The position numbers and the translations under genes are program-made. From Escherichia coli (GTDB lineage: Bacteria > Pseudomonadota > Gammaproteobacteria > Enterobacterales > Enterobacteriaceae), in the NCBI RefSeq assembly GCF_001677475.2, contig NZ_CP015229.1: 64,000 bases of DNA; one strand, 5' to 3'. This document shows, one piece after another, positions 217 through 32,763 of this stretch (within the stretch, counting starts at the first letter, position 1; every line of letters starts with the position of its first letter). Below the pieces are notes generated by a model. The model worked only from the letters and a program-made list of their open reading frames with translations. It was not told the DNA's origin and ran no database searches.

Positions 217-1878
217 ATGGATGATATTGTTAATTCTGTGCCCTCCTGGATGTTTACCGCAATTATTGCCGTATGCATTCTGTTTATTATTGGAATTATT
301 TTCGCCAGGCTCTATCGTCGCGCTTCGGCAGAGCAAGCTTTTGTTCGTACTGGTTTAGGTGGGCAAAAAGTGGTAATGAGCGGTGGCGCAATCGTGATGC
401 CGATCTTTCATGAAATAATCCCCATCAATATGAATACCCTGAAGCTGGAAGTCAGCCGCTCAACCATTGATAGCCTGATTACGAAAGATCGTATGCGCGT
501 CGATGTAGTAGTCGCTTTCTTTGTGCGGGTAAAACCTTCAGTAGAAGGGATTGCCACCGCCGCCCAGACGCTGGGGCAACGCACCCTGTCGCCTGAAGAC
601 TTACGTATGTTGGTTGAAGATAAATTTGTCGATGCCCTCCGTGCAACAGCTGCGCAAATGACCATGCATGAGTTACAGGATACCCGCGAGAACTTCGTGC
701 AGGGAGTACAAAATACCGTAGCTGAAGATCTGTCGAAAAACGGCCTGGAACTGGAAAGCGTTTCACTTACCAACTTTAACCAGACGTCGAAAGAACATTT
801 CAATCCTAACAACGCCTTTGACGCCGAAGGTTTAACCAAGCTGACGCAGGAGACGGAGCGCCGTCGTCGCGAACGTAACGAAGTTGAACAGGATGTAGAA
901 GTTGCGGTGCGTGAGAAAAACCGTGATGCGCTTTCGCGGAAGCTGGAGATTGAACAACAAGAAGCGTTTATGACGCTTGAACAGGAGCAGCAGGTTAAAA
1001 CCCGTACCGCTGAGCAGAATGCGAAAATTGCAGCTTTTGAGGCCGAGCGTCGTCGGGAAGCAGAGCAGACGCGTATTCTGGCTGAACGACAGATTCAGGA
1101 AACAGAAATCGACCGCGAACAGGCCGTCCGCTCAAGAAAAGTTGAAGCTGAACGTGAAGTTCGCATTAAAGAGATCGAACAGCAGCAGGTCACCGAAATC
1201 GCTAACCAGACGAAATCGATCGCTATTGCCGCCAAATCGGAACAACAGTCCCAGGCAGAAGCGCGTGCTAATCTCGCACTTGCAGAAGCGGTAAGCGCCC
1301 AACAAAACGTAGAAACCACTCGCCAGACTGCCGAAGCCGATCGTGCTAAACAAGTTGCCCTAATCGCTGCCGCGCAGGATGCAGAAACCAAAGCGGTTGA
1401 ACTGACCGTGCGGGCGAAAGCAGAAAAAGAAGCCGCAGAGATGCAGGCGGCGGCTATCGTTGAGTTAGCCGAAGCTACACGTAAAAAGGGTCTGGCGGAA
1501 GCAGAAGCACAACGTGCGCTGAACGATGCTATCAACGTACTTTCTGATGAACAAACCAGCCTTAAATTCAAACTGGCCTTGTTGCAGGCGCTACCTGCGG
1601 TAATAGAGAAATCCGTTGAGCCGATGAAGTCTATCGACGGCATCAAGATTATTCAGGTCGATGGATTAAACCGAGGTGGTGCTGCGGGGAATGCGGCATC
1701 AGGCAGCGTTAGTGGCGGAAACCTGGCAGAACAGGCATTGTCTGCCGCCCTTTCTTACCGCACACAGGCACCACTGATTGACTCCTTGCTCAATGAAATC
1801 GGTGTTTCAGGCGGCTCACTGACGGCATTGACCTCACCCTTAACCTCAACAACTCCCGTCGAAGAAAAAGCAGAGTAA
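217..1878 (+). CDS. yqiK: Flotillin-like SPFH/band-7 protein YqiK
   Basis: 553-aa ORF with N-terminal TM segment and long E/A/Q/R-rich coiled-coil region typical of flotillins; hairpin terminator follows at ~1890-1925. Confidence 0.88.
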   Translation: MDDIVNSVPSWMFTAIIAVCILFIIGIIFARLYRRASAEQAFVRTGLGGQKVVMSGGAIVMPIFHEIIPINMNTLKLEVSRSTIDSLITKDRMRVDVVVAFFVRVKPSVEGIATAAQTLGQRTLSPEDLRMLVEDKFVDALRATAAQMTMHELQDTRENFVQGVQNTVAEDLSKNGLELESVSLTNFNQTSKEHFNPNNAFDAEGLTKLTQETERRRRERNEVEQDVEVAVREKNRDALSRKLEIEQQEAFMTLEQEQQVKTRTAEQNAKIAAFEAERRREAEQTRILAERQIQETEIDREQAVRSRKVEAEREVRIKEIEQQQVTEIANQTKSIAIAAKSEQQSQAEARANLALAEAVSAQQNVETTRQTAEADRAKQVALIAAAQDAETKAVELTVRAKAEKEAAEMQAAAIVELAEATRKKGLAEAEAQRALNDAINVLSDEQTSLKFKLALLQALPAVIEKSVEPMKSIDGIKIIQVDGLNRGGAAGNAASGSVSGGNLAEQALSAALSYRTQAPLIDSLLNEIGVSGGSLTALTSPLTSTTPVEEKAE

Positions 1879-2079
1879 ACCCTCTTCTAGGAATAATCCC
1901 TGGCCCAAAAAGCCGGGGATTTTTTATATCTGCGTTCCGCTAAAAAGTGTAAATGATCAGGTTGTTGCAGCGTTTTGCGTGACTGCTCGGGGAAGGCAAA
2001 ACTGCATCAGAGAAAGCATTGCGCGGGGTCTGGCGCTCATCAACAATCGGGGAGTCAGTAAGGGGCTGAAACGGGAAAG

Positions 2080-2222
2080 CCCCTCCCGAAGAAGGGGCCT
2101 TATAGAAGGAAAGGGTTATGATGAAGTTCGTCATCATACTGATTGTGTTGTTACTGTTAAGTTTCCCGACTTACTAACAACTCATCAGAGGGGGGAGAAA
2201 TCCTCCCTTACCCTTGTTCCTT
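2080..2222 (-). ncRNA. sibE: Sib antisense sRNA (antitoxin) overlapping ibs
   Basis: Inferred from established Sib/Ibs architecture (sRNA ~140 nt, fully antisense to ibs ORF); GC hairpin at ~2075-2100 could be the 3' end. Boundaries approximate. Confidence 0.5.
2118..2177 (+). CDS. ibsE: Ibs-type 19-aa hydrophobic toxin peptide (type I toxin-antitoxin)
   Basis: ATG ATG AAG ... TAC TAA encodes MMKFVIILIVLLLLSFPTY, the Ibs peptide I recognise; located between yqiK and hldE where K-12 carries ibsD/ibsE. Which paralog this is cannot be decided from sequence alone. Confidence 0.75.
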   Translation: MMKFVIILIVLLLLSFPTY

Positions 2223-2296
2223 TACTTTAGGTTGAAAAAAAAACAGCGTCAATAGATCTGCCTGCTACGAAGCGAGATCTGTGAAGCGCTTTCCGG

Positions 2297-3730
2297 TTAG
2301 CCTTTTTTATCCTGTTGGATCTTCTTGATAATATTAGTGGTCGAGCAACCGTCTTCAAAGTTGAGCACCAACACTTCGCCGCCGTTGGCCCAGACTTCTT
2401 TACTCCCGGCAATCTCTTCTGGTTTATAATCGCCGCCTTTCACCAGCAGGTCTGGCAGGATACCGGCGATCAAGCGCTGCGGCGTGTCTTCTTCAAACGA
2501 CACCACCCAGTCGACCGCTTCCAGTGCGCCCAGCACAATCATACGCTGTTCGAGCGGGTTAACGGGGCGGGAATCCCCTTTCAGCCGTTTGGTGGAGGCA
2601 TCGCTGTTGACGGCGACAATCAAACGGTCACCCAGTTTACGGGCATTTGCCAGATAAGAGACGTGTCCGGCGTGCAGGATGTCAAAGACGCCATTGGTCA
2701 TCACCACTTTTTCACCGCGTTTACGCGCTGCCGCTACAGCAAGCTTCAGTTCCTCTTCGGTCATCACGCCAAAGCCGGTATCTGCACGTCCACGTACTGC
2801 GTTTTCCAGCTCGATCGGCGAAACCGTGGATGTCCCCAGTTTGCCGACCACCACACCAGCCGCCGCATTGGCAAAGAAGCAGGCTTCTTCCAGCGAATTA
2901 CCCGCTGCCAGCGTTGCCGCCAGGACACCAATCACCGTGTCGCCCGCACCGGTAACGTCATACACTTCCTGCGCCTGAGTTGGCATATGCAGCGGTGCTT
3001 TACCCGGTTGCAGCAGCGACATACCCTGTTCGGAACGGGTCACTAACAGAGCCGAGAGTTCGTAATCGGCAATCAGTTTCATGCCGCGCTCAACAATCTC
3101 TTCTTCGGTCTTACATTTACCGACAACAGCTTCAAATTCCGAGAGATTCGGCGTTAACAGCGTAGCGCCGCGGTAGCGCTCAAAATCGGTACCTTTTGGA
3201 TCAATCAGCACCGGAACACCCGCTTTACGCGCCAGTTGGATCATCTGCTGTACGCTTGCCAGCGCACCTTTGGCGTAGTCAGAAAGCACCAGCGCGCCAA
3301 TCGAACTCAGTGCCTGATTAATCCGCTCGTGCAGCGGCTGCGGATCAACCCCTTCAAAACCTTCTTCGAAATCCAGGCGGATCAGCTGTTGGTTACGGGA
3401 AAGCACTCGCAGTTTGGTAATAGTCGGATGCGTCGGTACAGAAACGAAGTCGCATTTTACGTTGACGTCCGCCAGTGATTTACTCAGCGCACGCGCCGCA
3501 TCATCAATACCGGTCAACCCGACCAGGCGAGCGTTAGCACCAAGAGAAGCGATGTTCATCGCCACGTTGGCTGCGCCGCCCGGACGTTCTTCAATGGTAT
3601 TAACTTTAACCACGGGCACCGGCGCTTCCGGCGAGATACGGCTGGTGGGACCGTACCAGTAACGATCCAGCATCACATCACCAACCACCATCACTCCTGC
3701 ACGTTCAAACTCTGGCAGCGTTACTTTCAT
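2297..3730 (-). CDS. hldE: Bifunctional D-glycero-beta-D-manno-heptose-7-phosphate kinase / heptose-1-phosphate adenylyltransferase
   Basis: 477-aa ORF; N-terminal ribokinase-like and C-terminal cytidylyltransferase-like regions; conserved position downstream of glnE. Confidence 0.9.
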
Positions 3731-3777
3731 TCCTGTCTCCTGAGAGATTCAAAATTTGCGCGCGATAATATCACACT

Positions 3778-6618
3778 TCATTCTTCCACCAGCCACTTCT
3801 GCCAGCTTGCCCGCACCAGTTCACGCTCTGCGGTGAAGCAATCCTCCGACACATGGCCCGGCAATTCCTGTAATGCCAGATGATGAAGTTCATCGCGCAG
3901 CGTCGTGTAAGCACGGGTCAGCGCCATCGCTTCCTGCTCTTCCATAATGTCGTTTTGCGCCAGTAGTTCCAGAATGCGCACGTTGTCTGACCAGCGCGTT
4001 AACTTCGGTTTTTCATGAGCGTAGCGCAACACCAGATATTGAGTAATAAATTCGATATCGGTAATTCCGCCTTCATCGGCTTTGATATCAAAGCGATCGC
4101 GATGTTTATTGCCGAGATGGGCACGCATTTTCTCGCGCATTTCCCGCACTTCTGTTTGCAGGGTTTTGCCTTCGCGCGGCAGCATCATAATTTCCCGACG
4201 CACCGCGTCAAAGTGCGCAGTGAGCTGTGGATCGCCATACACTACCCGCGCACGCACCAGCGCCTGATGCTCCCACGTCCAGGCCTCGTTTTTCTGATAA
4301 TCAGCAAACGCTTCAGCGGATGTCACGAGCATTCCCGCCGCCCCGGACGGACGCAGCCGCGCATCCACTTCGTACAAAATGCCGGAAGAAGTACGCGTAC
4401 TGAACAGATGCATAATGCGTTGCGCCAGACGCAGATAAAATTGCCGCCCGTCGATTTCCCGCTCGCCGTCGGTCATCACATCCATCGGGCAATCATGGAG
4501 GAAGATCAGGTCAAGATCGGAACTGTAACCTAACTCCCAACCGCCCAGCTTGCCGTAGCCGACCACCGCAAAACCACGGCCTTCGCGTTCGTTCAGGTGA
4601 TTTGGCTTACCGTAGCGGGCAACCATTTGAACCCACGCCTGCTGAACGACGGCGTCAATCATGGCTTCCGCCAGCCAGGTTAAGTGATCGCTCACTTTCA
4701 TCACCGGTAGCGTACCGGCGATATCCGCTGCCGCAATACGTAACAGTTGCGCCTGTTTGAACTGACGCAGCGCCTCAAGCTGTTGTTCTTCGTCATCTTC
4801 CGGCACGCGCAGTAAATACTGGCGCAGTTCATCACGGTAGGCATCCGTCGCCGTCGGCTGGTAGAGAGTGTTTGGATCGAGCAGTTCATCCAGCAATAAC
4901 GGATAACGCGCCAGTTGGCTGGCAATCATCGGCGATGCGGCACACAGAGAAATCAAATGTTTAAGCGCCGCGGGGAATTCACTGAGCAATTCTAAATAGG
5001 TGGTGCGGGTAACAATCCCCACCAGCAAGGCGGTAATGCGCGACAGCGTAACGGCAGCGTCTTCACGCGCACAGACATCACTTAGCAAATGTGGCATCAG
5101 ATGGTCGAGCACCTGACGTCCTCGCGGCCCGATGGTGCGCTTATCCAGCTCTTTGCGGAAATCGGCAATCAGCGTTAGCACCTGTTTGCGATCATCCTCG
5201 CTAAGATGCGCCAGCACTGGCGTGGTGTCATCTTCCTGCAACGCATCCTGCCACAGCTCACGCCACTGTTCCGACAGCGACTCTTCCTGAGTTTCGCTTT
5301 CGTCGTCGCCAATCAATTCGTTAAACACCCGGCGCACATTGGTCATATGTCCGGTCAGCTTCCCTGTTAGTTGCGACCAGTCAGCGAAATCCATTGCCCA
5401 CGCCAGCCGCGCACGATTAAGCTCATCAGAAGGAAGCGTCTGGGTTTGTTCGTCGTTAATGCTTTGCAGCAGGTTTTCCAGACGCCGCAGGAACAGATAC
5501 GCCACTCGCAATTGTTCAGCATCGTTTTCAGAAAGCAGATGCAGCGCGGCAATAGCGCTGAGCGTTGGTAGTAAAGAGCGCGATTGCAGCGACGGTTCAC
5601 GCCCGCCGCGAATAAGCTGGAATACCTGGACGATAAATTCAATTTCTCGAATGCCACCCGCGCCAAGTTTGATGTTGTCGGTCAAACCACGTCGACGCAC
5701 TTCGCGGGCAATCATCCCTTTCATGTTGCGCAGCGACTGGATGACGCTGAAATCGATGTAACGACGGAAAACAAACGGGCGCAGCATCGCACGCAACTCG
5801 TTAGCATAGACGCCTTCGCTATCGCCCATAATCCGCGCCTTGACCATCGCGTAACGCTCCCAGTCGCGCCCCTGCTCCTGGTAATAATCTTCCAGTGCCG
5901 CAAAGCTCAGCACCAGCGGGCCACTTTCGCCAAACGGACGCAGTCGCATATCCACGCGATAGACGAAACCATCCTGCGTTGGTTGATCCAGCACTTTAAT
6001 CAGCCGCTGCCCCATGCGGGTAAAAAACTGCGCGTTATCCATTTCCCGGCGTCCGCCCTGGGTACAACCATGTTCCGGCCAGGCAAAAATCAGATCGATA
6101 TCAGAGGAGAAATTCAGTTCCCCGCCGCCCAGCTTACCCATGCCTAAAATCAGCAGCGGTTGCGCTTCGCCCTGCGCATTGCACGGCGTTCCCCATTCGC
6201 GGCAGCAGGCGTCATACAGCCAGTCACGCGCCGCAACAATCAGCGTCTCCGCCAGATGACTGAGCTGCTGCAAAATGCTCTCTTCAGTAACCAGTGCCAG
6301 CGTTTGCGCCCAGGCGATGCGCACCATAATGCGCCGCCGGAATAGCCGCAGCTCGCGCATTACCCCGGCTTCGTCACTCACATTACTGAGCGCCTCCTGC
6401 AACCAGGCAGCGTAATGCTGCCATTCGTCGGCCTGCGGCGGTTGGCTTTCCAGTTCCGTCAGCCACTCTGGATGCGCAATCACGCTGTCCTGCACAAAAT
6501 CACTGAAAGTAAGTACTGACTTCGCCTGTGCGCTAAGTGATTCCTCGGCTAAAGGCTCTGGCAGCCGCTCAACAACGGTCTGCCAGTACTGCTGTAACGG
6601 TGAAGAGAGCGGCTTCAT
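3778..6618 (-). CDS. glnE: Glutamine synthetase adenylyltransferase/adenylyl-removing enzyme
   Basis: ORF track gives 1014 aa from an upstream alternative start; the recognised GlnE N-terminus [13 protein letters not shown] begins at the ATG whose complement is at 6616-6618, giving 946 aa with two nucleotidyltransferase domains. Confidence 0.9.
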
Positions 6619-6640
6619 TAGCGATTTTATCCTTGCCTGA

Positions 6641-7942
6641 TTAACGTTTTCCGCTGTGCAACCAGAACGGTTCCTGATTGTTTGCCTCATTACGGAAATG
6701 TTCAATTTCAATGCGTTGACCGGTCGCAATAGCGTGATGCAGCCCCTGCCAGTTCTCCAGCCAGGCTTGCGCGACGACAGGATTGTAGTAACCCGCCAGC
6801 AACAATATCGAATCAATATCACGCGTCAGGCGTGGCAACTGGTCATGGTAGCGATCGCCTAACGGCTGGCAGAAAACGCTTTTCAGTTCCGCGGCATGGC
6901 GGGAAAGATGGATATCGGCAAAGCGTTTGAAGGAATCGCTGATTTTGCCCTGCGCTTTGGCATCTAAAAACGGCTGCCAGGCTTTGCTTACCAGCCATTC
7001 GGTCAACGCCAGCTTCGCCATCGCCGTTTCGGTAGAGTAGACCGCCGTTACGGCAGACACCGCAGAAGCGATGGTCGCTTCGCATTGAGTCAGTAAATCA
7101 CGTAAGTGAGTGCTCGCTTTACGCGGCACAATGCCACCGAACAGCATCAGCGTATGGCGAACAAGGCCAATGGCTGCCAGCACCTGCTCTTTCGCCGCAT
7201 CGTTGCCGCGTACCCACAGTTCTTCATGATACTGCCATTGCGCTAACGCCAGCTCGAGCGCCGCTTCCAGCCCCTGTTCCACATCAGCTTTTGCCGCAAC
7301 ATGCAAAATGGTGGTCGGTTTGATTTCACGCGCGGGATTGCCCTGCGCCAGATGATAGCCACGCGCCGCTTTGCTCAGGCTGCCCTGGCGTAATCCGGTT
7401 TGCGATACCAGTTGGTTCGCCAGTTTCAGCACCGCGCGCGTGTCGCCGCTAAGCAGTTCCAGTTCCAGCTCGCAGATAGGTTCAGCAAATTCACCCGCTT
7501 TCACTTCCCCCTGGTCGAGGGCGATTTCAATTTGGCTACCATCAACCTCTACCAGCCACTTTTCGCGATAAAAATCGGTGCTGAACAGCGGTTGTACGCG
7601 GGAAGCAAGATCGGCAGGCAATTCGCCGTTCGGCCAGACTTCCGTCGGTAACTGCGCCAGGTCGAGCGTCGGTTCGCTCAACGCCACGTTATATTCCGGG
7701 CGCTGGTGTAAGCCGCCTGTCACTCTTCCTGCAACTTTCATGGTCATCTCATAGCGACCGTTTTCGCCACGAATACGCAAGCCCATGTCGTGCCCACGCA
7801 GCCAGTTATCCGGCGTTTCGTAGTAAATATTCAGCAACTGCACGGGGTCATGGTGCTCGCCGCCCAGCGTATTGAGATGGTCACGCAACGCCTCAACGGC
7901 ACTGTGATTAACAATAAACTTTAATTCGATTTCCTGAGCCAT
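6641..7942 (-). CDS. ygiF: Inorganic triphosphatase (CYTH domain)
   Basis: 433-aa ORF starting [11 protein letters not shown]; conserved ygiF-glnE-hldE arrangement. Confidence 0.88.
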
Positions 7943-8183
7943 AGCCTTTACTTATCGGTTATGTCACATAAGTGACGATGAACGGCGAACTTAATGCGAT
8001 CTTTTTTGTCAGTAGATAGTATTTTGCGCCAAATTGCCATGCAACGGGCAATTTGACGGGCGTAAAAGTTTGAAGCAGTGGCAAGACCTGACACAGAGGA
8101 TTCCGATTGATGTCGAATGCTTTGCGTAGCGACACTGATGCCACTACTATCGTTCCACTTTCCATGACAATAACGACAGCCTG

Positions 8184-8804
8184 ATGCCAAAATTACGCCT
8201 GATCGGATTAACTTTACTCGCACTTAGCGCCACTGCCGTCTCACACGCTGAAGAAACGCGCTATGTTTCTGATGAACTGAATACCTGGGTCCGTAGCGGT
8301 CCGGGAGATCATTATCGCCTCGTGGGCACGGTTAACGCCGGCGAGGAAGTGACCTTATTACAAACTGACGCCAACACCAATTATGCCCAGGTGAAAGACA
8401 GCTCTGGCCGTACCGCCTGGATCCCGTTGAAACAACTTAGCACAGAGCCAAGCCTGCGCTCCCGTGTGCCAGATCTGGAAAATCAGGTCAAAACCCTGAC
8501 CGATAAGCTCACCAATATCGATAACACCTGGAATCAGCGCACCGCAGAAATGCAGCAAAAAGTGGCGCAGAGCGACAGCGTGATCAACGGGTTAAAAGAA
8601 GAAAATCAGAAACTGAAAAACGAGCTGATTGTCGCGCAGAAAAAGGTCGATGCCGCCAGCGTACAGCTGGATGACAAACAGCGCACCATCATCATGCAGT
8701 GGTTTATGTATGGCGGCGGCGTGCTGGGGCTTGGCTTGCTGCTCGGTCTGGTACTGCCGCACCTGATCCCAAGCCGCAAACGCAAAGATCGCTGGATGAA
8801 CTAA
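8184..8804 (+). CDS. ygiM: SH3-domain protein with signal peptide and C-terminal TM anchor
   Basis: 206-aa ORF; N-terminal signal-like segment and hydrophobic C-terminus. Confidence 0.85.
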   Translation: MPKLRLIGLTLLALSATAVSHAEETRYVSDELNTWVRSGPGDHYRLVGTVNAGEEVTLLQTDANTNYAQVKDSSGRTAWIPLKQLSTEPSLRSRVPDLENQVKTLTDKLTNIDNTWNQRTAEMQQKVAQSDSVINGLKEENQKLKNELIVAQKKVDAASVQLDDKQRTIIMQWFMYGGGVLGLGLLLGLVLPHLIPSRKRKDRWMN

Positions 8805-8867
8805 ATCGCCTTCTTCGTTGCACTGTCTTATTATTAGGAATTGTGTATTTGACGAAGGGATGATGGC

Positions 8868-10106
8868 GTGAAGATTTATCTGGTCGGTGGTGCTGTTCGG
8901 GATGCATTGTTAGGGCTACCGGTCAAAGACAGAGATTGGGTGGTGGTCGGCAGTACGCCACAGGAGATGCTCGACGCGGGCTACCAGCAGGTAGGCCGCG
9001 ATTTTCCTGTTTTTCTGCATCCGCAAACGCATGAAGAGTATGCGCTGGCACGTACTGAACGGAAATCCGGTTCCGGTTACACCGGTTTTACCTGCTATGC
9101 CGCACCGGATGTCACGCTGGAAGATGATCTTAAGCGTCGCGATCTGACCATTAATGCGCTGGCCCAGGACGATAACGGCGAGATTATCGACCCGTACAAC
9201 GGTCTGGGCGATCTGCAAAATCGTCTGTTGCGCCATGTTTCCCCCGCTTTTGGCGAAGATCCGTTACGCGTATTGCGCGTGGCGCGTTTTGCTGCGCGTT
9301 ATGCCCACCTCGGTTTTCGTATTGCCGATGAAACTCTGGCACTGATGCGCGAGATGACCCATGCGGGTGAACTGGAACACCTGACGCCTGAACGGGTATG
9401 GAAAGAGACGGAAAGCGCCCTCACCACCCGCAATCCCCAAGTCTTCTTCCAGGTACTGCGCGATTGTGGTGCACTGCGCGTTTTATTCCCGGAAATTGAC
9501 GCCCTGTTTGGCGTTCCGGCCCCTGCCAAGTGGCATCCGGAAATCGACACGGGTATTCATACCTTAATGACGCTCTCAATGGCGGCGATGCTGAGTCCGC
9601 AGGTCGATGTCCGTTTCGCAACGCTATGCCACGATCTCGGTAAAGGACTGACGCCGCCAGAACTTTGGCCGCGTCATCATGGTCATGGCCCGGCGGGTGT
9701 TAAGTTAGTGGAACAACTCTGCCAGCGTCTGCGTGTGCCAAATGAAATTCGCGATTTAGCCAGACTGGTGGCTGAGTTTCACGATCTCATCCACACCTTC
9801 CCAATGCTGAACCCAAAAACCATCGTCAAATTATTTGATTCCATCGATGCCTGGCGTAAACCGCAGCGTGTCGAGCAACTGGCGCTGACCAGCGAGGCTG
9901 ACGTGCGCGGCAGAACCGGTTTTGAATCGGCGGACTACCCGCAAGGCCGCTGGTTGCGCGAAGCCTGGGAAGTGGCACAGTCAGTGCCGACAAAAGCCGT
10001 CGTTGAAGCGGGATTTAAAGGTGTGGAGATTCGCGAAGAGCTGACCCGACGGAGGATTGCGGCGGTAGCCAGCTGGAAGGAACAACGTTGCCCAAAGCCT
10101 GATTAA
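8868..10106 (+). CDS. cca: tRNA nucleotidyltransferase (CCA-adding enzyme) with HD domain
   Basis: 412-aa ORF from a GTG start, [12 protein letters not shown]...; HD motif (HDLGK) in C-terminal half. Confidence 0.9.
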
Positions 10107-10140
10107 CTTTTTAAATTCAGTATATTGCAGAAATCCTTTA

Positions 10141-10175
10141 GGTCGGATAAGACGCACAAGCGTCATATCCGACAC
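10141..10175. repeat. REP-type palindromic element
   Basis: ggtcggataagacgcacaagcgtcatatccgacac, an imperfect palindrome of the REP family, in the cca-uppP intergenic region. Confidence 0.6.
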
Positions 10176-10185
10176 TATCTCTCAA

Positions 10186-11007
10186 TCAAAAGAACACAAC
10201 GTACACCGCAGCTGCCACAATAAAGCGATAAATGGCGAACGGGATAAACGAAATGCGCTTAATCAGTTGCAGGAAGGTTTTAATCGCTATCAGTGCCACC
10301 ACAAAAGCGGTGATAAACCCAACGGCAAACATCGGGATATCGCCGGTTGTCAGGAAGCCCCAGCTTTTGTAGAGATCGAGCGCCGTTGCGCCCATCATCA
10401 TCGGCACCGCCAGCAGGAACGAGAACTCGGAAGCAGCGTAACGGCTCACGCCCATCAGCATCCCACCTGAAATGGTCGCCCCGGAACGGGAGAAACCCGG
10501 CCACAGCGCCAGACACTGGAAACAGCCAATCATAAACGCCTGACGATAGGTCATATCATCAAGACCCGGCGCACGCGGCTCTTTCGGCTTCAGGCATTCG
10601 GCGGCAATCAGCAACAAACCGCCAACGACCAGTGCATACATCACATTTATCGGGTTAAACAATGACTTAATCGTGTCGTGGAACAACAGCCCCAGTACCA
10701 CCGCCGGAATCATCCCCAGCAAAATGTGGATCAGCGTTAAACGACCTTTGCTTTCTCCTTCGTGCTGCAACGGGCGGCCAAAGTGGATGCCAATCAGGCC
10801 AAACAGACGCCGCCAGAACATCACTACTACCGCCAGAATTGATCCTAACTGGATCACAACTTCAAAGGTTTTCGCCGTGTCGCCCTCAAACCCCAACAAG
10901 TGACCGACAATAATCATATGGCCCGTGCTGGATACCGGCAGAAATTCTGTCAATCCTTCGACCACACCCAATATTGCCGCTATCAGCAGCGAGTGCATAT
11001 CGCTCAT
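10186..11007 (-). CDS. uppP: Undecaprenyl-diphosphate phosphatase
   Basis: Polytopic membrane protein; the recognised N-terminus [14 protein letters not shown] begins at the ATG whose complement is at 11005-11007 (ORF track adds one upstream TTG codon). Confidence 0.88.
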
Positions 11008-11097
11008 CAATAAACCCCTAAATTATTAAAATGTACCGCTTGTCCGAACTACTGCAGTATGACCAGGTTATAACCATTTGGTTTAACAGCTGTAAAA

Positions 11098-11466
11098 TTA
11101 ATTATTTTCTTTCAGATTATTGCCACGCTCAATGATTACGCCAACATTCGCCGCCCGCGCCACTGCGCCTGGCTTGCTGAGTTTGATACGCACCCACGGC
11201 GAGTTGAAGCGTGCTAACAGCAGCTCCGCCACCTCTTCAGCCACGCGCTCCACCAGCGCAAAACGCGCCCCCTCGACGTGGCTGACCACCGTTTCTGCAA
11301 TGTCAGCGTAACTGAGGCAATCCGCCACATCATCACTTTTCGCCGCTTTACGGTTATCCCATGCCATTTCGATATCGAACACTAACTTCTGTTCGATGGT
11401 CTGTTCCCAGTCGTAAACACCAATAGTGGTGATTACCGAAAGTTGCTCTATAAATACAATATCCAT
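11098..11466 (-). CDS. folB: Dihydroneopterin aldolase
   Basis: 122-aa protein MDIVFIEQLSVITTIGVYDWE...; conserved folB-uppP neighbourhood. Confidence 0.88.
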   Translation of the reverse strand: MDIVFIEQLSVITTIGVYDWEQTIEQKLVFDIEMAWDNRKAAKSDDVADCLSYADIAETVVSHVEGARFALVERVAEEVAELLLARFNSPWVRIKLSKPGAVARAANVGVIIERGNNLKENN

Positions 11467-11570
11467 CACGTCCTGCCTGCTTTTTGGCTAACCGGATACC
11501 ACTTCCGGCGAAATGTGCGTATTATCCACAGATTCATCGTTGAACACGAATTTTCAAAACGGAACAGCTT

Positions 11571-12188
11571 ATGAGTGCAATCGCGCCTGGAATGATCCTC
11601 ATCGCGTACCTCTGCGGCTCCATTTCCAGTGCCATTCTGGTTTGCCGCTTGTGTGGGCTGCCCGATCCGCGAACCAGCGGCTCCGGCAATCCAGGCGCAA
11701 CCAATGTGTTACGTATCGGTGGCAAGGGAGCAGCCGTAGCAGTACTGATTTTCGACGTTCTGAAAGGAATGTTGCCCGTCTGGGGCGCGTATGAATTAGG
11801 TGTCAGCCCCTTCTGGCTAGGCTTAATTGCCATCGCCGCCTGTCTTGGACACATCTGGCCCGTTTTCTTCGGATTTAAAGGAGGAAAAGGCGTTGCTACC
11901 GCTTTTGGTGCCATCGCACCAATTGGCTGGGATCTCACCGGAGTAATGGCGGGAACCTGGTTACTGACCGTGCTATTGAGCGGATACTCGTCGCTGGGAG
12001 CGATTGTCAGCGCACTGATTGCTCCGTTTTATGTCTGGTGGTTTAAGCCACAATTCACCTTCCCGGTTTCGATGCTCTCTTGCCTGATCCTGCTGCGTCA
12101 TCATGACAACATCCAGCGTCTGTGGCGTCGTCAGGAGACAAAAATCTGGACGAAATTCAAAAGAAAGCGCGAAAAGGATCCCGAGTGA
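11571..12188 (+). CDS. plsY: Glycerol-3-phosphate acyltransferase PlsY
   Basis: 205-aa polytopic membrane ORF, divergent from folB. Confidence 0.88.
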
Positions 12189-12200
12189 TTTCTGGTGGAT

Positions 12201-13133
12201 CTACATAACCTGATAGCCTTCGTCGGGCTTGCCCAGCCGTTGCTGGCACCATGCCGCCAGAAATTCCACGCAGACACGTAATTTCATGCTGCGATAGAGC
12301 GGCTCCCGGTAAACAGCCCAGATATTGGCGCTTTGTGCATACTCCGGCAATACTCGCACCAGTTTGCCACTCTCCAGAAACGGCAACACATCCCACTCGG
12401 AACGCAACATAATCCCTTTGCCCTCCAGCGCCCATTGCAACACTATCTCGCCGCTATTGGAGGAAAGATGCCCGCTTACCTTCACCGATTTTTTCTCCTG
12501 ACCGTTCCCCAACTCCCATATTCCGTGAGTCATATCGCGCTCTTTGGTCACCAGACAATCATGACGACTTAATTCCTGTAAGGATTGTGGCTGCGGATAT
12601 TTTTGCAGATACTCAGGTGCTGCGCATAATATTCTTTTATTTTTCGTTAACAGATGCGCAATATAATAATCAGGAATTTCGTCATTAATACGAATATCCA
12701 GATCAATATTATCCTGCACTAAATCAATTTGCCGATCGAACAATTCAAAATGCACCTGTAACTCAGGATAATTGCGCATCAGTTCGGTAATGGCTGGCGC
12801 AATATGGCTGCGCCCAAAACCAAAACTGCAACCAATACGAATCATCCCCTCCGGGCGCGTTTTGATTTGCGTGACGTCATCGACCAGTCGCTGATATTGG
12901 GTGAGGATTTCCAACGCATGTTCGTAACAACGTTGGCCACTTTCAGTCAGCGCCACGCCGCGAGCGGATCGGTTCAGCAGCGTTGTTGCCAGCGTATTTT
13001 CAAGGATTTGGATCCGCTTGGTGACAAATGCAGGCGTCTGCCCAAGCGTCGCCGCTGCGGCGCTAAAACTCTCGCTGTGGACGATTTCTACCAGTACCTG
13101 CAAATCTTTGGCTAAAGGCCAGCTATTCAGCAT
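12201..13133 (-). CDS. ttdR: LysR-family transcriptional activator of the tartrate operon
   Basis: 310-aa ORF with N-terminal HTH and LysR substrate-binding domain; divergent from ttdA. Confidence 0.88.
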
Positions 13134-13339
13134 CGTTAATTATCCGCAGTTGTGATAAGCGCAGTGTATTTCGCAAAACATTGCCATTCCCTGCTCTGGC
13201 GCAATATTCATTCTTATTTTCGCGTTGATTCACGAACTGTGAATTACATATTCACGGCGGCAAAAAATATAAAACCACATTTTTAGTGGTAGTTTGTGGC
13301 GGTGAATTTTTCCAGACAAATACATAAACTGGAGTTGCC

Positions 13340-14251
13340 ATGATGAGCGAAAGTAATAAGCAACAGGCAGTGAATAAGTTGACGGAGATTATCGCTAACT
13401 TTACCGCCATGATTTCTACCCGAATGCCCGATGACGTGGTGGACAAACTAAAACAGCTAAAGGATGCCGAAACGTCGTCGATGGGGAAAATCATCTACCA
13501 CACGATGTTCGACAACATGCAAAAAGCAATCGACCTGAATCGCCCGGCCTGCCAGGACACCGGCGAAATCATGTTTTTTGTTAAGGTCGGTTCCCGTTTC
13601 CCACTGCTTGGCGAGCTGCAAAGCATTCTTAAGCAAGCCGTGGAAGAGGCAACCGTCAAAGCGCCACTGCGTCACAATGCGGTAGAAATTTTTGACGAAG
13701 TGAACACCGGCAAAAATACCGGCAGCGGCGTACCGTGGGTCACCTGGGATATCGTCCCCGACGGTGACGATGCGGAAATCGAAGTTTACATGGCAGGCGG
13801 CGGCTGCACGTTGCCTGGTCGTTCGAAAGTGTTAATGCCGTCGGAAGGCTACGAAGGCGTAGTGAAATTCGTCTTCGAAAATATCTCCACCCTCGCCGTA
13901 AACGCCTGTCCACCGGTACTGGTAGGCGTGGGCATCGCCACCTCGGTGGAAACCGCCGCTGTGCTCTCACGTAAAGCCATTTTGCGCCCAATTGGCAGCC
14001 GCCACCCCAATCCGAAAGCGGCAGAGCTGGAGCTACGCCTGGAAGAAGGACTCAACCGTCTGGGGATTGGTCCACAAGGGCTGACTGGCAACAGTTCAGT
14101 GATGGGCGTACATATCGAATCTGCCGCCCGCCATCCGTCAACCATCGGCGTTGCTGTTTCTACAGGCTGCTGGGCGCATCGTCGCGGCACACTGCTGGTT
14201 CATGCCGATCTCACCTTTGAAAATCTGTCTCACACCCGGAGCGCGTTATGA
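13340..14251 (+). CDS. ttdA: L(+)-tartrate dehydratase alpha subunit
   Basis: 303-aa ORF, fumarate-hydratase class I N-terminal-like; overlaps ttdB start by 4 bp. Confidence 0.9.
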
Positions 14252-14853
14252 AAAAGATCCTGACAACCCCGATCAAAGCTGAAGATCTGCAAGATATTCG
14301 CGTCGGCGATGTGATCTACCTGACCGGTACGCTGGTGACCTGTCGTGACGTTTGTCACCGTCGCTTGATCGAACTGAAACGTCCGATCCCTTACGATCTC
14401 AACGGCAAAGCGATTTTCCACGCTGGCCCCATCGTGCGCAAAAACGGCGACAAATGGGAGATGGTATCCGTCGGTCCGACAACCAGTATGCGTATGGAAA
14501 GTTTTGAACGTGAATTTATCGAACAGACCGGCGTGAAACTGGTGGTCGGCAAAGGCGGAATGGGGCCGCTGACCGAAGAAGGCTGCCAGAATTTCAAGGC
14601 GCTGCATGTGATTTTCCCGGCAGGCTGCGCAGTACTGGCGGCAACCCAGGTGGAAGAGATTGAAGAAGTGCACTGGACAGAACTCGGGATGCCGGAGTCG
14701 CTGTGGGTCTGCCGGGTCAAAGAGTTCGGTCCGCTGATTGTTTCTATTGATACCCACGGCAACAACCTGATAGCCGAAAACAAAAAGCTGTTCGCCGAAC
14801 GCCGCGATCCCATCGTGGAAGAGATTTGCGAGCACGTCCACTACATCAAATAA
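14248..14853 (+). CDS. ttdB: L(+)-tartrate dehydratase beta subunit
   Basis: 201-aa ORF, ATGA overlap with ttdA stop. Confidence 0.9.
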
Positions 14854-14901
14854 CCCTCCCGGAGAGGCTCACCCCCTCTCCTTTTTCGCAGGCATAACAC
14901 G

Positions 14902-16365
14902 ATGAAACCTTCCACTGAATGGTGGCGATACCTTGCGCCGCTGGCGGTCATCGCCATTATTGCTCTAATTCCGGTTCCCGCAGGGCTGGAGAGTCATACC
15001 TGGCTCTACTTTGCCGTTTTTACTGGCGTGATCGTTGGGCTGATCCTCGAACCCGTGCCGGGTGCCGTGGTGGCGATGGTGGGTATCTCCATTATCGCCA
15101 TTCTCTCGCCGTGGCTGCTGTTTAGCCCCGATCAACTCGCCCAGCCAGGCTTTAAGTTCACCGCCAAATCCCTCTCCTGGGCAGTTTCTGGTTTTTCTAA
15201 TTCGGTTATCTGGCTGATTTTCGCCGCCTTTATGTTTGGCACAGGCTATGAAAAAACCGGGCTGGGGCGACGTATCGCGCTGATTCTGGTGAAAAAGATG
15301 GGGCATCGCACGCTGTTTCTCGGCTATGCGGTGATGTTCTCCGAGCTGATCCTGGCACCTGTAACACCGTCCAACTCGGCGCGTGGTGCGGGAATTATCT
15401 ATCCCATCATCCGTAACCTGCCACCGCTCTATCAATCACAACCAAATGACAGCAGTTCACGCAGCATTGGCTCGTACATCATGTGGATGGGGATTGTTGC
15501 CGACTGCGTGACCAGCGCCATTTTCCTGACGGCGATGGCACCAAACTTGCTGTTAATTGGACTGATGAAAAGTGCATCTCACGCCACGCTGAGTTGGGGC
15601 GACTGGTTCCTCGGGATGTTGCCGCTCAGTATTTTACTGGTGCTGCTGGTTCCCTGGCTGGCTTACGTGCTGTACCCGCCGGTACTGAAGTCTGGCGATC
15701 AGGTGCCGCGCTGGGCAGAGACGGAACTGCAGGCAATGGGCCCGCTCTGTTCGCGTGAAAAACGGATGCTGGGGCTGATGGTAGGCGCGCTGGTGCTGTG
15801 GATTTTCGGCGGTGATTATATCGATGCCGCGATGGTCGGTTACAGCGTGGTGGCGCTGATGCTGCTTCTGCGCATTATCAGTTGGGACGACATTGTCAGT
15901 AATAAAGCGGCGTGGAACGTTTTCTTCTGGCTGGCCTCGCTTATCACCCTCGCTACCGGACTCAACAACACCGGTTTTATTAGCTGGTTTGGCAAACTGT
16001 TAGCAGGCAGCTTAAGCGGTTATTCGCCGACGATGGTGATGGTGGCGTTGATTGTGGTCTTTTATCTGCTGCGCTACTTTTTTGCCAGCGCCACGGCGTA
16101 TACCTCCGCCCTCGCACCGATGATGATTGCCGCTGCGCTGGCGATGCCGGAAATCCCGCTGCCGGTGTTCTGCCTGATGGTTGGTGCGGCAATTGGTCTG
16201 GGGAGCATTCTTACACCATATGCCACCGGCCCCAGTCCGATTTACTACGGCAGTGATTATCTGCCAACGGCGGATTACTGGCGACTGGGGGCGATTTTTG
16301 GGCTGATATTCCTCGTATTGCTGGTGATTACCGGCTTACTGTGGATGCCCGTGGTGTTGCTTTAA
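14902..16365 (+). CDS. ttdT: Tartrate/succinate antiporter (DASS family)
   Basis: 487-aa polytopic membrane protein downstream of ttdAB. Confidence 0.88.
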   Translation: MKPSTEWWRYLAPLAVIAIIALIPVPAGLESHTWLYFAVFTGVIVGLILEPVPGAVVAMVGISIIAILSPWLLFSPDQLAQPGFKFTAKSLSWAVSGFSNSVIWLIFAAFMFGTGYEKTGLGRRIALILVKKMGHRTLFLGYAVMFSELILAPVTPSNSARGAGIIYPIIRNLPPLYQSQPNDSSSRSIGSYIMWMGIVADCVTSAIFLTAMAPNLLLIGLMKSASHATLSWGDWFLGMLPLSILLVLLVPWLAYVLYPPVLKSGDQVPRWAETELQAMGPLCSREKRMLGLMVGALVLWIFGGDYIDAAMVGYSVVALMLLLRIISWDDIVSNKAAWNVFFWLASLITLATGLNNTGFISWFGKLLAGSLSGYSPTMVMVALIVVFYLLRYFFASATAYTSALAPMMIAAALAMPEIPLPVFCLMVGAAIGLGSILTPYATGPSPIYYGSDYLPTADYWRLGAIFGLIFLVLLVITGLLWMPVVLL

Positions 16366-16407
16366 GTAAGGACGGTGCCGGAAGTAACTCTCCGGCACCC
16401 GATAGTT

Positions 16408-17421
16408 TTACGCAGCCGGTAACTCCGCCAGCGGCCAGCGCGGACGCACGCTAACGCCGAGATCCGCCGTCGCGCCTGCTTTAAACCGCACCATTCCGGC
16501 ATAGGCGATCATCGCACCGTTATCGGTACAAAACTCCGGACGCGCGTAGAACACTTCGCCGCGGCGTTTTTTCATCATTTCAGCCAGCTTCGCCCGTAAC
16601 GTGCGGTTAGCACTCACGCCGCCTGCCATGACCAGTCGCTTAAAGCCAGTCTGATCCAGCGCTCGCTTACACTTAATCATCAACGTATCGACCACCGCAT
16701 CTTCAAAGGCACGGGCGATATCAGCACGCGTCTGGTCGTCGGTGCCGTTGTCACGAATGGTATTTGCCGCGAAGGTTTTCAGGCCGGAGAAGCTGAAATC
16801 CAGCCCCGGACGGTCGGTCATCGGACGCGGGAAGACAAAGCGCCCGGCAGTACCCTGAGCCGCCATTTTCGACAGCAGCGGCCCGCCTGGATAATCCAGC
16901 CCCAGCAGCTTCGCGGTTTTATCAAACGCTTCACCAGCGGCATCATCAATGGACTCGCCGAGCAGCTCATACTGACCAATGCCGGTAACGCTGATTAACT
17001 GCGTATGACCGCCGGAAACCAGCAGCGCGACAAACGGAAATTCCGGTGGGTTATCTTCCAGCATCGGCGCTAACAGATGCCCTTCCATATGGTGTACCGG
17101 GATTGCCGGAACGTCCCAGGCAAATGCCAGAGAACGCCCCACGGTCGCGCCAACCAACAGCGCGCCGACTAATCCAGGGCCTGCGGTATAGGTCACTGCG
17201 TCAATGTCTTTTGCCGTTAAACCAGACTCCTTTAGCGCCGCCTGGATCAACGGTACGGTTTTACGCACATGATCGCGGGAGGCCAGCTCAGGCACTACAC
17301 CGCCGTAGTCAGCGTGCAATTTCACCTGACTATACAATTGGTTGGCTAACAAACCTTTTTCATCGTCGTAAATGGCGATGCCGGTTTCATCGCAGGAAGT
17401 TTCAATACCCAGTACACGCAT
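16408..17421 (-). CDS. tsaD: tRNA N6-adenosine threonylcarbamoyltransferase
   Basis: 337-aa [17 protein letters not shown]... (Kae1/Gcp family); divergent from rpsU. Confidence 0.9.
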
Positions 17422-17619
17422 GACTTGTTTTACCTCGCTTTATTACCGCGCAGTGTAGGACCAATGCGGGTTGATGTAAAACTTTGTTCGCCCCTGGAGA
17501 AAGCCTCGTGTATACTCCTCACCCTTATAAAAGTCCCTTTCAAAAAAGGCCGCGGTGCTTTACAAAGCAGCAGCAATTGCAGTAAAATTCCGCACCATTT
17601 TGAAATAAGCTGGCGTTGA

Positions 17620-17874
<255 letters not shown>

Positions 17875-17984
17875 TTCCCCGAGAGCGTTGCTCTCCGATC
17901 AGACTGAGTTGTAGTTGTAAGGCCGTGCTTCCGAAAGGAATGCGCGGCTTATTTTCGTTTATGAATTGCTAAAAATCGGGGCCT

Positions 17985-19730
17985 ATGGCTGGACGAATCC
18001 CACGCGTATTCATTAATGATCTGCTGGCACGCACCGACATCGTCGATCTGATCGATGCCCGTGTGAAGCTGAAAAAGCAGGGCAAGAATTTCCACGCGTG
18101 TTGTCCATTCCACAACGAGAAAACCCCATCATTCACCGTTAACGGTGAGAAACAGTTTTACCACTGCTTTGGATGTGGCGCGCACGGCAACGCGATCGAC
18201 TTCCTGATGAACTACGACAAGCTTGAGTTCGTCGAAACGGTCGAAGAGCTGGCAGCAATGCACAATCTTGAAGTGCCATTTGAAGCAGGTAGCGGCCCCA
18301 GCCAGATCGAGCGCCATCAGCGGCAAACGCTTTATCAGTTGATGGACGGTCTGAATACGTTTTACCAACAATCTTTACAGCAACCTGTTGCCACGTCTGC
18401 GCGCCAGTATCTGGAAAAACGCGGATTAAGCCACGAGGTTATCGCCCGCTTTGCGATTGGTTTTGCCCCCCCTGGCTGGGACAACGTCCTGAAGCGGTTT
18501 GGCGGCAATCCAGAAAATCGCCAGTCATTGATTGATGCGGGCATGTTGGTCACTAACGATCAGGGGCGCAGTTACGACCGTTTCCGCGAGCGGGTGATGT
18601 TCCCCATTCGCGATAAACGCGGTCGGGTGATTGGTTTTGGCGGGCGTGTGCTGGGCAACGATACCCCCAAATACCTGAACTCGCCGGAAACAGACATTTT
18701 CCATAAAGGCCGCCAGCTTTACGGTCTTTATGAAGCGCAGCAGGATAACGCTGAACCCAATCGTCTGCTTGTGGTCGAAGGCTATATGGACGTGGTGGCG
18801 CTGGCGCAATACGGCATTAATTACGCCGTTGCGTCGTTAGGTACGTCAACCACCGCCGATCACATACAACTGTTGTTCCGCGCGACCAACAATGTCATTT
18901 GCTGTTATGACGGCGACCGTGCAGGCCGCGATGCCGCCTGGCGAGCGCTGGAAACGGCGCTGCCTTACATGACAGACGGTCGTCAGCTACGTTTTATGTT
19001 TTTGCCTGATGGCGAAGACCCTGACACGCTGGTACGAAAAGAAGGTAAAGAAGCGTTTGAAGCGCGGATGGAGCAGGCGATGCCACTCTCCGCATTTCTG
19101 TTTAACAGTCTGATGCCGCAAGTTGATCTGAGTACCCCTGACGGGCGCGCACGTTTAAGTACGCTGGCACTGCCATTGATATCGCAAGTGCCGGGCGAAA
19201 CGCTGCGAATATATCTTCGTCAGGAATTAGGCAACAAATTAGGCATACTTGATGACAGCCAGCTTGAACGATTAATGCCAAAAGCGGCAGAGAGCGGCGT
19301 TTCTCGCCCTGTTCCGCAGCTAAAACGCACGACCATGCGTATACTTATAGGGTTGCTGGTGCAAAATCCAGAATTAGCGACGTTGGTCCCGCCGCTTGAG
19401 AATCTGGATGAAAATAAGCTCCCTGGACTTGGCTTATTCAGAGAACTGGTCAACACTTGTCTCTCCCAGCCAGGTCTGACCACCGGGCAACTTTTAGAGC
19501 ACTATCGTGGTACAAATAATGCTGCCACCCTTGAAAAACTGTCGATGTGGGACGATATAGCAGATAAGAATATTGCTGAGCAAACCTTCACCGACTCACT
19601 CAACCATATGTTTGATTCGCTGCTTGAACTGCGCCAGGAAGAGTTAATCGCTCGTGAGCGCACGCATGGTTTAAGCAACGAAGAACGCCTGGAGCTCTGG
19701 ACATTAAACCAGGAGCTGGCGAAAAAGTGA
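17985..19730 (+). CDS. dnaG: DNA primase
   Basis: 581-aa ORF with zinc-ribbon (CPFHNEKTPSF...CFGCG), TOPRIM region and C-terminal DnaB-interaction domain. Confidence 0.95.
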   Translation: MAGRIPRVFINDLLARTDIVDLIDARVKLKKQGKNFHACCPFHNEKTPSFTVNGEKQFYHCFGCGAHGNAIDFLMNYDKLEFVETVEELAAMHNLEVPFEAGSGPSQIERHQRQTLYQLMDGLNTFYQQSLQQPVATSARQYLEKRGLSHEVIARFAIGFAPPGWDNVLKRFGGNPENRQSLIDAGMLVTNDQGRSYDRFRERVMFPIRDKRGRVIGFGGRVLGNDTPKYLNSPETDIFHKGRQLYGLYEAQQDNAEPNRLLVVEGYMDVVALAQYGINYAVASLGTSTTADHIQLLFRATNNVICCYDGDRAGRDAAWRALETALPYMTDGRQLRFMFLPDGEDPDTLVRKEGKEAFEARMEQAMPLSAFLFNSLMPQVDLSTPDGRARLSTLALPLISQVPGETLRIYLRQELGNKLGILDDSQLERLMPKAAESGVSRPVPQLKRTTMRILIGLLVQNPELATLVPPLENLDENKLPGLGLFRELVNTCLSQPGLTTGQLLEHYRGTNNAATLEKLSMWDDIADKNIAEQTFTDSLNHMFDSLLELRQEELIARERTHGLSNEERLELWTLNQELAKK

Positions 19731-19924
19731 TTTAACGGCTTAAGTGCCGAAGAGCGATCGGGAAGCCCCCGACAGCCGCACTGAGAGGCAGCGGCAAATA
19801 TATAAGTACGCCCTCGTAATTATCGTTGGCGGTAAACAACCGTTGGATTTCAGCGTTAACGGCTGAAGGACATCGGGTCAATCGCCCAACACCAACCTCA
19901 TGAAATAAGTGTGGATACCGTCTT

Positions 19925-21766
<1,842 letters not shown>

Positions 21767-21844
21767 TCGGTAGGCCGGATCAGGTGTTACGCCGCACCCG
21801 GCACTAGTCCCTCCGCACAAACGCTACCTTTTCGGTGGCGTTTT

Positions 21845-22351
21845 TTATCGCCCACGCACTACCAGCGCCTGGTCCAGCTCGCGATACGCTTCAACCAGTT
21901 TCTCCAGTGAAACGCGACTTAAACCGCTGGGATTTGGCAGCACCCAAATCTGCGTCGAACCAATGGTGAGCGTTTGTTTCCCCCACTGTGCACCGCGCTG
22001 GCTGAATCCCTGTTCATATGCTTGTTTGCCCAGAATCGCCAACGCCTGCGGCTGATAATCTTCAATTTTTTCAATCAGCTTACGCCCGCCTGCGTGTAGT
22101 TCTTGCTTTGAAACTTCATTGGCTTGCACCGTTGGACGGTCTACCAGTTTGGTGACGCCACAACGATAATCCAGCAGATGCTGTGCCTCCTGCGGCTTCA
22201 ACTGACGGTCGGTAAACCCGGCCTGATATATCACCTTCCAGAAGCGATTTGCCGGATGAGCAAAGGGAAAACCAGTCCCGGCGGATGAAAGCCCAGGGTT
22301 GATACCGCAAAACACGACCCGTAACCCTGGAGCCAAAATATCCTCAACCAT
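21845..22351 (-). CDS. mug: G/U mismatch-specific uracil DNA glycosylase
   Basis: 168-aa [23 protein letters not shown]... Confidence 0.9.
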
Positions 22352-22475: not shown

Positions 22476-22551
22476 GGCCCCTTAGCTCAGTGGTTAGAGC
22501 AGGCGACTCATAATCGCTTGGTCGCTGGTTCAAGTCCAGCAGGGGCCACCA
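22476..22551 (+). tRNA. ileX: tRNA-Ile (anticodon CAU, lysidine-modified)
   Basis: 76-nt sequence ggccccttagctcagtggttagagcaggcgactCATaatcgc...gggccacca folds as a canonical cloverleaf with CAT anticodon and encoded CCA; its 3' 46 nt are repeated at 36093-36141. Confidence 0.92.
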
Positions 22552-32099: not shown

Positions 32100-32105
32100 G
32101 ATTAT

Positions 32106-32622: not shown

Positions 32623-32717
32623 AGCTACCTCGATACTCTCGTTATCGTTGGTGGTTAGAAGCCCTGCGAGTGGTAACGACACTTGCGGGGCTTTGTTTTT
32701 TGTTGCACTTACTGTTA

Positions 32718-32763
32718 ATGTACGTACGTAATATTGATGATAATAGGAGTTACGTACGTACAT
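32718..32763. promoter_or_regulatory. Twin palindromic operator (two copies of TACGTACGTA, 30 bp apart) in a divergent promoter region
   Basis: atgtacgtacgtaat at 32718-32732 and gttacgtacgtacat at 32749-32763; second copy overlaps the start codon of the RHH-like gene. Confidence 0.55.

Follow-up and report, generated by a model that had tools for sequence, protein, structure and literature searches.

A single Ibs/Sib type I toxin-antitoxin unit between yqiK and hldE in Escherichia coli, compared with the tandem units of K-12

The Ibs peptides of Escherichia coli K-12 are toxic when overproduced and each is repressed by its cognate Sib RNA alone, as has been shown for the K-12 copies (Han et al., 2010; PMC2943612). 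Repression is confined to the cognate pair and is exerted through two independent recognition domains, TRD1 and TRD2. The site of pairing is inside the toxin ORF for TRD1 and at the translation start region for TRD2; the duplex that forms as pairing extends is cleaved by RNase III (Han et al., 2010; PMC2943612). Strains and species differ in how many type I loci they have, ibs among them, as a result of tandem duplication and loss (Fozo et al., 2010; PMC2887945). In K-12 MG1655, sibD/ibsD and sibE/ibsE are both annotated between yqiK and hldE, so that the two tandem copies attributed to K-12 in an earlier, sequence-only reading of the present locus are indeed found there. The two repeat units of K-12, each of ~357 nt, are 90.8% identical in a self-comparison and are separated by a 19-nt filler, GAAGGTTTCATTAACACAT.

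Here, the corresponding locus is described from a 64,000-nucleotide stretch of E. coli DNA (referred to as the window; contig NZ_CP015229.1 of assembly GCF_001677475.2). The locus is very probably one intact Ibs/Sib type I toxin-antitoxin module that is orthologous to the ibsD/sibD-ibsE/sibE region of K-12 and that probably lost one unit later by recombination between repeats.

Identity and boundaries of the module

The locus is flanked on the left by yqiK (217-1878, plus strand), which encodes a flotillin-family protein of 553 aa and is identical at 95.4% of nucleotides to the K-12 gene and at 96.8% to yqiK of E. coli E7-1N7. On the right is hldE (2297-3730, minus strand), with an ORF of 477 aa and 95.6% nucleotide identity to K-12 hldE. 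In the spacer between them, the Rfam family SIB_RNA (RF00113) matches positions 2252 to 2103 on the minus strand with 144.8 bits, against a gathering score of 56, and with an E value of 4.5e-31; the match takes in the full model (positions 1-147). No other SIB_RNA match reaches the gathering threshold in the 64-kb window, where the one other Rfam match is a tRNA. This single tRNA, with a CAT anticodon, is at 22476-22551 on the plus strand. A degenerate 29-base pattern describing the core of the ibs start region likewise occurs once in the 64 kb, against 0 occurrences expected by chance.

On the strand opposite to the small RNA, a hydrophobic 19-aa ORF, MMKFVIILIVLLLLSFPTY, is present at 2119-2178. 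It has the features by which ibs genes of 18-19 aa can be recognized, namely a start of the form MM.., an end of the form ..SF..Y and a ribosome-binding site. Sib covers both the ibs ORF and its translation start region, and is provided with a promoter, a terminator and a stable multi-hairpin fold. The module also occupies the expected position in the yqiK-hldE spacer, where the PGAP annotation in single-unit E. coli reads 'type I toxin-antitoxin system Ibs family toxin'. From its Rfam score and synteny, together with the 19-aa ORF and the antisense arrangement, the locus is identified as an ibs/sib type I module, as the sequence-only reading had proposed. The peptide quoted in that reading agrees exactly with the translation of 2119-2178, and its span of 2080-2222 nearly coincides with the Sib RNA gene as placed here (2073-2218). 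The IbsD and IbsE peptides of K-12 both differ from that of the window, a detail absent from that reading.

The single repeat unit of ~357 nt extends from 1896 to 2252 and aligns over its full length with both K-12 units, with 94.4% identity to each. At its start is a terminator-like hairpin and T-run of yqiK (1895-1931, plus strand), which consists of a 10-bp stem (hairpin 1895-1921) followed by TTTTTATATCT in the terminator scan and is invariant in all aligned units. Similarity to other genera starts at ~2033-2042 and extends to 2252. The conserved module therefore runs roughly from the inferred ibs -10 to the sib -35, and the Escherichia repeat unit further includes the yqiK terminator hairpin (1895-1921) and ~110 nt more.

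The tandem arrangement of K-12, in which two ~357-nt units are joined by the filler, is replaced in the window by one unit with no filler. The yqiK-hldE spacer is 418 nt long, compared with 794 nt in K-12 MG1655, and the difference of 376 nt is exactly one unit plus filler (357+19). The 19-aa ORF had been described as present once, and this is confirmed by one pattern match, one Rfam match and one unit in the alignment. A second ibs ORF was looked for at 1879-2296 by alignment to K-12 and none was found; the 418-nt spacer corresponds to exactly one unit from end to end.

Three other candidates in the spacer were rejected as genes. A SIB_RNA match on the plus strand (2077-2225), with a sub-threshold score of 32.5 bits, mirrors the quasi-symmetric hairpins of the minus-strand match and corresponds to the ibs mRNA. 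The others are mechanical ORFs over the spacer, one of 83 aa (1979-2230, plus strand) and one of 65 aa (1940-2137, minus strand). The frames of these long ORFs are not conserved, because K-12 units D and E each have a 1-nt indel in that span.

In the sib promoter, the -35 hexamer is where the Rfam SIB_RNA model begins, and the model ends short of the terminator hairpin. Because it spans the promoter and not the terminator, the match at 2252-2103 is shifted by ~30 nt relative to the RNA ends defined from K-12 (2218-2073). Overall, the system is an established one and its copy-number state is both common and already described; the module appears intact in every sequence feature tested, and its function may be presumed from the work on K-12.

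Toxin mRNA, antisense RNA and predicted mode of action

The ibs ORF (2119-2178, plus strand), with the nucleotide sequence ATGATGAAGTTCGTCATCATACTGATTGTGTTGTTACTGTTAAGTTTCCCGACTTACTAA, is read as ATG ATG AAG TTC GTC ATC ATA CTG ATT GTG TTG TTA CTG TTA AGT TTC CCG ACT TAC TAA. Its length of 19 codons is the same in all 27 units compared, which come from Escherichia, Citrobacter, Kluyvera, Phytobacter, Salmonella and one Enterobacteriaceae genome, and it aligns column for column with K-12 IbsD, K-12 IbsE and 24 other units. The purine-rich Shine-Dalgarno region read from the sequence, GAAGGAAAGGG (2104-2114, plus strand), ends 4 nt 5' of the ATG and is invariant among Escherichia units. Short ORFs such as the 19-aa ibs are easily missed by gene callers, and flagging them is useful for annotation.

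The ends of the two RNAs were placed with the in vitro transcription primers for K-12 ibsD and SibD (Han et al., 2010; PMC2943612), which could be positioned unambiguously on the window. By this homology, the ibs mRNA is a plus-strand transcript of 163 nt, from G2054 (GTCAGTAAGGGGCTG) to 2216. It is predicted to be strongly structured (-62.5 kcal/mol, z = -4.0), and its minimum-free-energy fold includes a 3' hairpin, AGGGGGGA-GAAA-UCCUCCCU, at 2190-2209. A putative weak ibs promoter (2019-2047, plus strand), with the hexamers TTGCGC (-35, 2019-2024) and AACAAT (-10, 2042-2047), was located by its position relative to the start site of K-12 ibsD. These hexamers are below consensus, and the promoter was not picked up in the promoter scan.

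The gene for the Sib antisense RNA (2073-2218, minus strand; ~146 nt) was placed from the SibD 5' and 3' primers of Han and colleagues (2010), the K-12 sibE annotation and the Rfam match of 144.8 bits. By K-12 homology the RNA starts at A2218 (ACAAGGGTAAGGG) and ends at 2073 (...GGGAGGGGCUUUCCC), and the RefSeq ends of sibE map to 2217 and 2074, one base inside the primer-defined ends. With the ends carried over from K-12, Sib (2218-2073) and the ibs mRNA (2054-2216) are complementary over 144 nt. The predicted Sib fold (-53.7 kcal/mol, z = -4.45) consists of a closing stem, three internal hairpins and a terminator, and its shape agrees with the Rfam consensus. The terminator hairpin, with an 11-bp stem and a UUCG loop, is predicted at 2076-2101 on the minus strand.

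Upstream of Sib, the promoter scan found a promoter with 9 of 12 matches (2224-2252, minus strand), in which the -35 hexamer TTGACG (2252-2247) and the -10 hexamer TAAAGT (2229-2224) are separated by a 17-nt spacer and precede the start at A2218. In the alignment, the 35 nt upstream of the Sib +1 (2219-2253, minus strand) have one mismatch to the minimal promoter of K-12 sibD. This minimal promoter was reported in a 2026 study to be sufficient for NAD capping of an A-initiated transcript (PMC12956327). As the promoter in the window is of a near-identical sibD type and transcription would start at an A, NAD capping of the window Sib is a reasonable prediction.

The recognition domains were transferred by position from SibC (Han et al., 2010). 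The TRD1 equivalent (SibC +46 to +68), which would pair inside the ORF, falls at 2151-2173 on the minus strand with ~3 nt uncertainty and is of the K-12 SibE type; the variable sites at 2156-2183 all match K-12 unit E. The TRD2 equivalent (SibC +99 to +115), which would pair at the translation start region, falls at 2104-2120 on the minus strand. It reads ATAGAAGG in the window, ACAGAAGG in K-12 unit D and GTATAAGG in K-12 unit E, and is therefore intermediate but closer to SibD. Since ibs and Sib are encoded in cis, their complementarity is perfect whatever the allele.

A mode of action can be proposed by homology to K-12. The weak promoter would direct synthesis of the ~163-nt ibs mRNA (2054-2216, plus strand), from which the hydrophobic 19-aa peptide would be translated; when over-made, this peptide would be toxic to the membrane. 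On the opposite strand, the near-consensus sigma-70 promoter would direct synthesis of the structured ~146-nt Sib RNA (2218-2073, minus strand), perfectly complementary to nearly the whole ibs mRNA. Sib would nucleate at two regions, the ORF interior and the ribosome-binding site. The pairing would block translation and expose the duplex to cleavage, and the toxin would normally not be made.

Copy number and history of the locus

The one-unit layout is present in 1,325 of 5,425 complete E. coli genomes (24%), as determined with an 801-nt query spanning both flanks, a genome being called one-unit when one place covered at least 80% of the query. The remaining complete genomes show two overlapping places with this query, as expected for two units. 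A second estimate was taken from 60 evenly spaced rows of the ranking obtained with the two-unit query from K-12, 14 of which are one-unit; coverage of that query does not discriminate, as pieces are joined on one-unit genomes, so that the state was read from the span and piece columns and the 801-nt query provides the main count. The type strain ATCC 11775 is one-unit, as are many extraintestinal isolates. Copy number here had been put forward as a known strain difference, and both these counts and the literature agree with that view (Fozo et al., 2010; PMC2887945). A rare zero-copy state is also found, in E. coli EC0900 (NZ_CP158187.1, 1169-3066), which has no ibs/sib unit and lacks yqiK and yqiJ. 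There, hldE is separated from a truncated fimbrial usher gene by an IS903B transposase gene, the mark of an IS-bounded deletion.

Across species, 57 loci were recovered when one genome of each was scanned for the pattern. One unit lies between yqiK and hldE in five of these, from Citrobacter youngae, Kluyvera sichuanensis, two Phytobacter species and one Enterobacteriaceae genome. In Citrobacter sp. FP75, one unit is found between hldE and the 3' part of yqiK, which is the extent of the locus examined. The loci of Salmonella arizonae and diarizonae have one unit adjoining hldE, and yqiK has no match there. Two units are found in E. albertii, Escherichia sp. E1V33, K-12, O157:H7, ECA64 and most E. 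coli. Copy-number scoring left out E. whittamii and Escherichia sp. MOD1-EC7003, whose loci end inside the spacer. A further one-unit locus, with an F4/PTY peptide, is that of NZ_JAATUR010000001.1 (1-2525), which is labelled E. coli SCPM-O-B-8794 and is a separate species representative in the genome collection; identity to the window is only 89.8% for its yqiK and 93.4% for its hldE.

The 19-nt filler and close variants of it are homologous in K-12, O157:H7, ECA64, E. albertii and Escherichia sp. E1V33. A shared, homologous filler joining the units implies that the units were duplicated once, before E. coli and E. albertii diverged, and the sequences thus indicate one old duplication at yqiK-hldE. 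Identity to the window is 95-98% for E. coli, compared with 88-93% for E. albertii and E1V33, so that by identity the window nests inside the group that these species form with E. coli. Given the old duplication and this nesting, the one-unit state of the window is most simply a later loss. It is probably the product of recombination between direct repeats. The two-unit arrangement would have arisen once, before E. coli and E. albertii separated. The lineage of the window would later have lost one unit and the 19-nt filler by homologous recombination between the ~357-nt direct repeats, and the same outcome would have been reached in about a quarter of E. coli.

Loss may also have occurred more than once. 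E. coli JNEC-KY177 (1182-1539) has one unit of the D-position type, with L4 and a ...VSFQAY end; its peptide, MMKLVIILIVLLLVSFQAY, is that of the yqiK-proximal unit of ECA64. This different one-unit allele suggests that the deletions recur. Since the duplication junction is old and common to E. albertii, recurrent loss by repeat recombination is the most likely origin of the one-unit genomes.

The main competing explanation is that the single unit is ancestral and was never duplicated, being retained here and in the one-unit E. coli, and that the two-unit alleles are of later origin or were later spread, through recombination among lineages of Escherichia. The one-unit loci of Citrobacter, Kluyvera, Phytobacter and the Enterobacteriaceae genome between yqiK and hldE are in its favour, as are those of Salmonella by hldE, although yqiK has no match in the latter. 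In the 19.7-kb core, it is one-unit strains of E. coli, AR_0077 for example, that most resemble the window. The units are also heavily mosaic, which points to frequent recombination at yqiK-hldE. The F4/...PTY allele is common to one-unit E. coli, SCPM-O-B-8794 and the E copy of E. albertii, and this sharing, together with the one-unit state of the outgroup genera, is why a long-lived one-unit haplotype is given some weight. An ancestral single unit is nevertheless unlikely. The same filler in E. albertii, E1V33 and E. coli places the duplication before their split, with the window nested inside by identity; the allele of KY177 points to repeated loss; and the size difference amounts to precisely one unit with its filler. 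Secondary loss is therefore preferred.

The history is blurred by gene conversion among the units, which are mosaic between strains. Neighbour-joining trees of the units have no clean D and E clades and show mosaicism only. In ECA64 (1182-1915), a peptide of the K-12 IbsD type is found in the hldE-proximal (E) position. With units shuffled or converted from one position to the other, the names 'ibsD' and 'ibsE' denote positions and not clean orthology groups. Compared with the two K-12 units, the window is D-like to the left of 2150 (14 sites to 5) and E-like to the right (2 to 11; Fisher p = 0.003), a pattern that fits loss through a crossover between two such units. The same left/right polarity is not significant against the unit pairs of O157, E. 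albertii, E1V33 and ECA64 (p 0.35-1). It can be suggested, tentatively, that the single unit is a natural recombinant of a D-type and an E-type unit, its Sib combining an E-type domain 1 with a D-like promoter and domain 2, and that the one- and two-unit states coexist as deletions recur. If true, such a unit would be a small natural experiment in which the specificity domains of Sib were reshuffled without killing the cell.

It might also be asked whether the window copy is a decaying, non-functional relic that has kept its similarity and lost expression of toxin or antitoxin. To our knowledge, no physiological role has been firmly established for chromosomal Ibs/Sib, and the hexamers of the ibs promoter are poor enough to be missed by the scan. 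A relic is nevertheless very improbable. Start codon, stop codon and ribosome-binding site of the ORF are all preserved; its product has the same sequence as the E copy in E. albertii, and none of the 27 units from the genera compared departs from a length of 19 codons; the SIB_RNA match scores far over the threshold; and the Sib promoter is off the active K-12 sibD minimal promoter at one of 35 positions (PMC12956327). Least credible of all is an assembly artefact in which two ~357-nt units about 90% alike were collapsed into one chimera, as this could produce the D-like left and E-like right pattern against K-12 but is made unnecessary by the 1,325 finished E. coli genomes with the same layout, ATCC 11775 included, while the window unit is closest (96.4%) to those real one-unit alleles and units differing by 9-10% are normally resolved by assemblers.

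Relation to known alleles and systems

Over the 19.7 kb of core genes from hldE to rpoD (within 2297-22000), the best identity to the window is 97.9%, the 5,425 matching genomes all being within a band of 95-99%. Around the ibs/sib locus the best E. coli identity is 95.8%, and no finished E. coli genome is close to the window. The lineage of the window is probably a deep-branching E. coli or a cryptic-clade Escherichia. An identical copy of the 220-nt core module is absent from complete E. coli genomes, the best match being 98.2%, and this fits the overall divergence of the window. Elsewhere in the window, downstream of the tRNA, the stretch at 30000-50000 contains genes for a tyrosine recombinase/integrase and a DNA primase family protein among aer, ygjI and ebgA. 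It is covered to at least 80% in only 72 of 5,425 genomes and is probably an integrated island.

The significance of the locus is small beyond its correct annotation, as this is a textbook chromosomal type I pair whose copy-number variation was already known. The finding of a duplication junction common across Escherichia species, together with mosaic units, is mildly new.

Among described alleles, ibsE/sibE of K-12 (b4666/b4611) resembles the window in adjoining hldE, in having the same antisense layout and in being identical over the second half of the ORF and the domain-1 region of Sib. The IbsE peptide, MMKLVIILVVLLLLSFPTY, is changed in the window at 2 of 19 residues, L4F and V9I. K-12 differs further in having a second unit, ibsD/sibD, upstream. 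In contrast to ibsE/sibE, the window is D-like in its left half, in the Sib -10 hexamer (TAAAGT, compared with TAGAGT) and at 2 of 3 variable sites of domain 2. From the K-12 IbsD peptide, MMKLVIILIVLLLVSFAAY, the window peptide differs at four positions.

The E. coli alleles nearest to the window are those that PGAP names ibsE. The single-unit allele of E41-1, E7-1N7 and ATCC 11775 (WP_001387082.1) likewise lies as one unit between yqiK and hldE, with identities to the window of 96.4% over the unit and 98.2% over the 220-nt core. F4 and the ...LSFPTY end are common to both, and the peptide of the common one-unit E. coli, MMKFVIILVVLLLLSFPTY (WP_001387082.1), has V9 where the window has I9. 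A patch at 2006-2011 is like K-12 D in the window but E-like in strains of the E41-1, E7-1N7 and ATCC 11775 type. In E. albertii NBRC 107761, the hldE-proximal ibs copy encodes a 19-aa peptide identical to that of the window, although this species has two units and the nucleotide identity of the unit is 93.6%.

Among other type I systems of E. coli, ldr/rdl and zor/orz are like ibs/sib in pairing a small hydrophobic toxin with an antisense RNA that represses it, and in that copy number varies between strains by tandem duplication and loss (Fozo et al., 2010; PMC2887945). Their sequences are unrelated to those of ibs/sib. The ldr/rdl and zor/orz antitoxins overlap the 5' region of the toxin mRNA only. 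Sib, in contrast, overlaps nearly the whole ibs mRNA (Han et al., 2010; PMC2943612).
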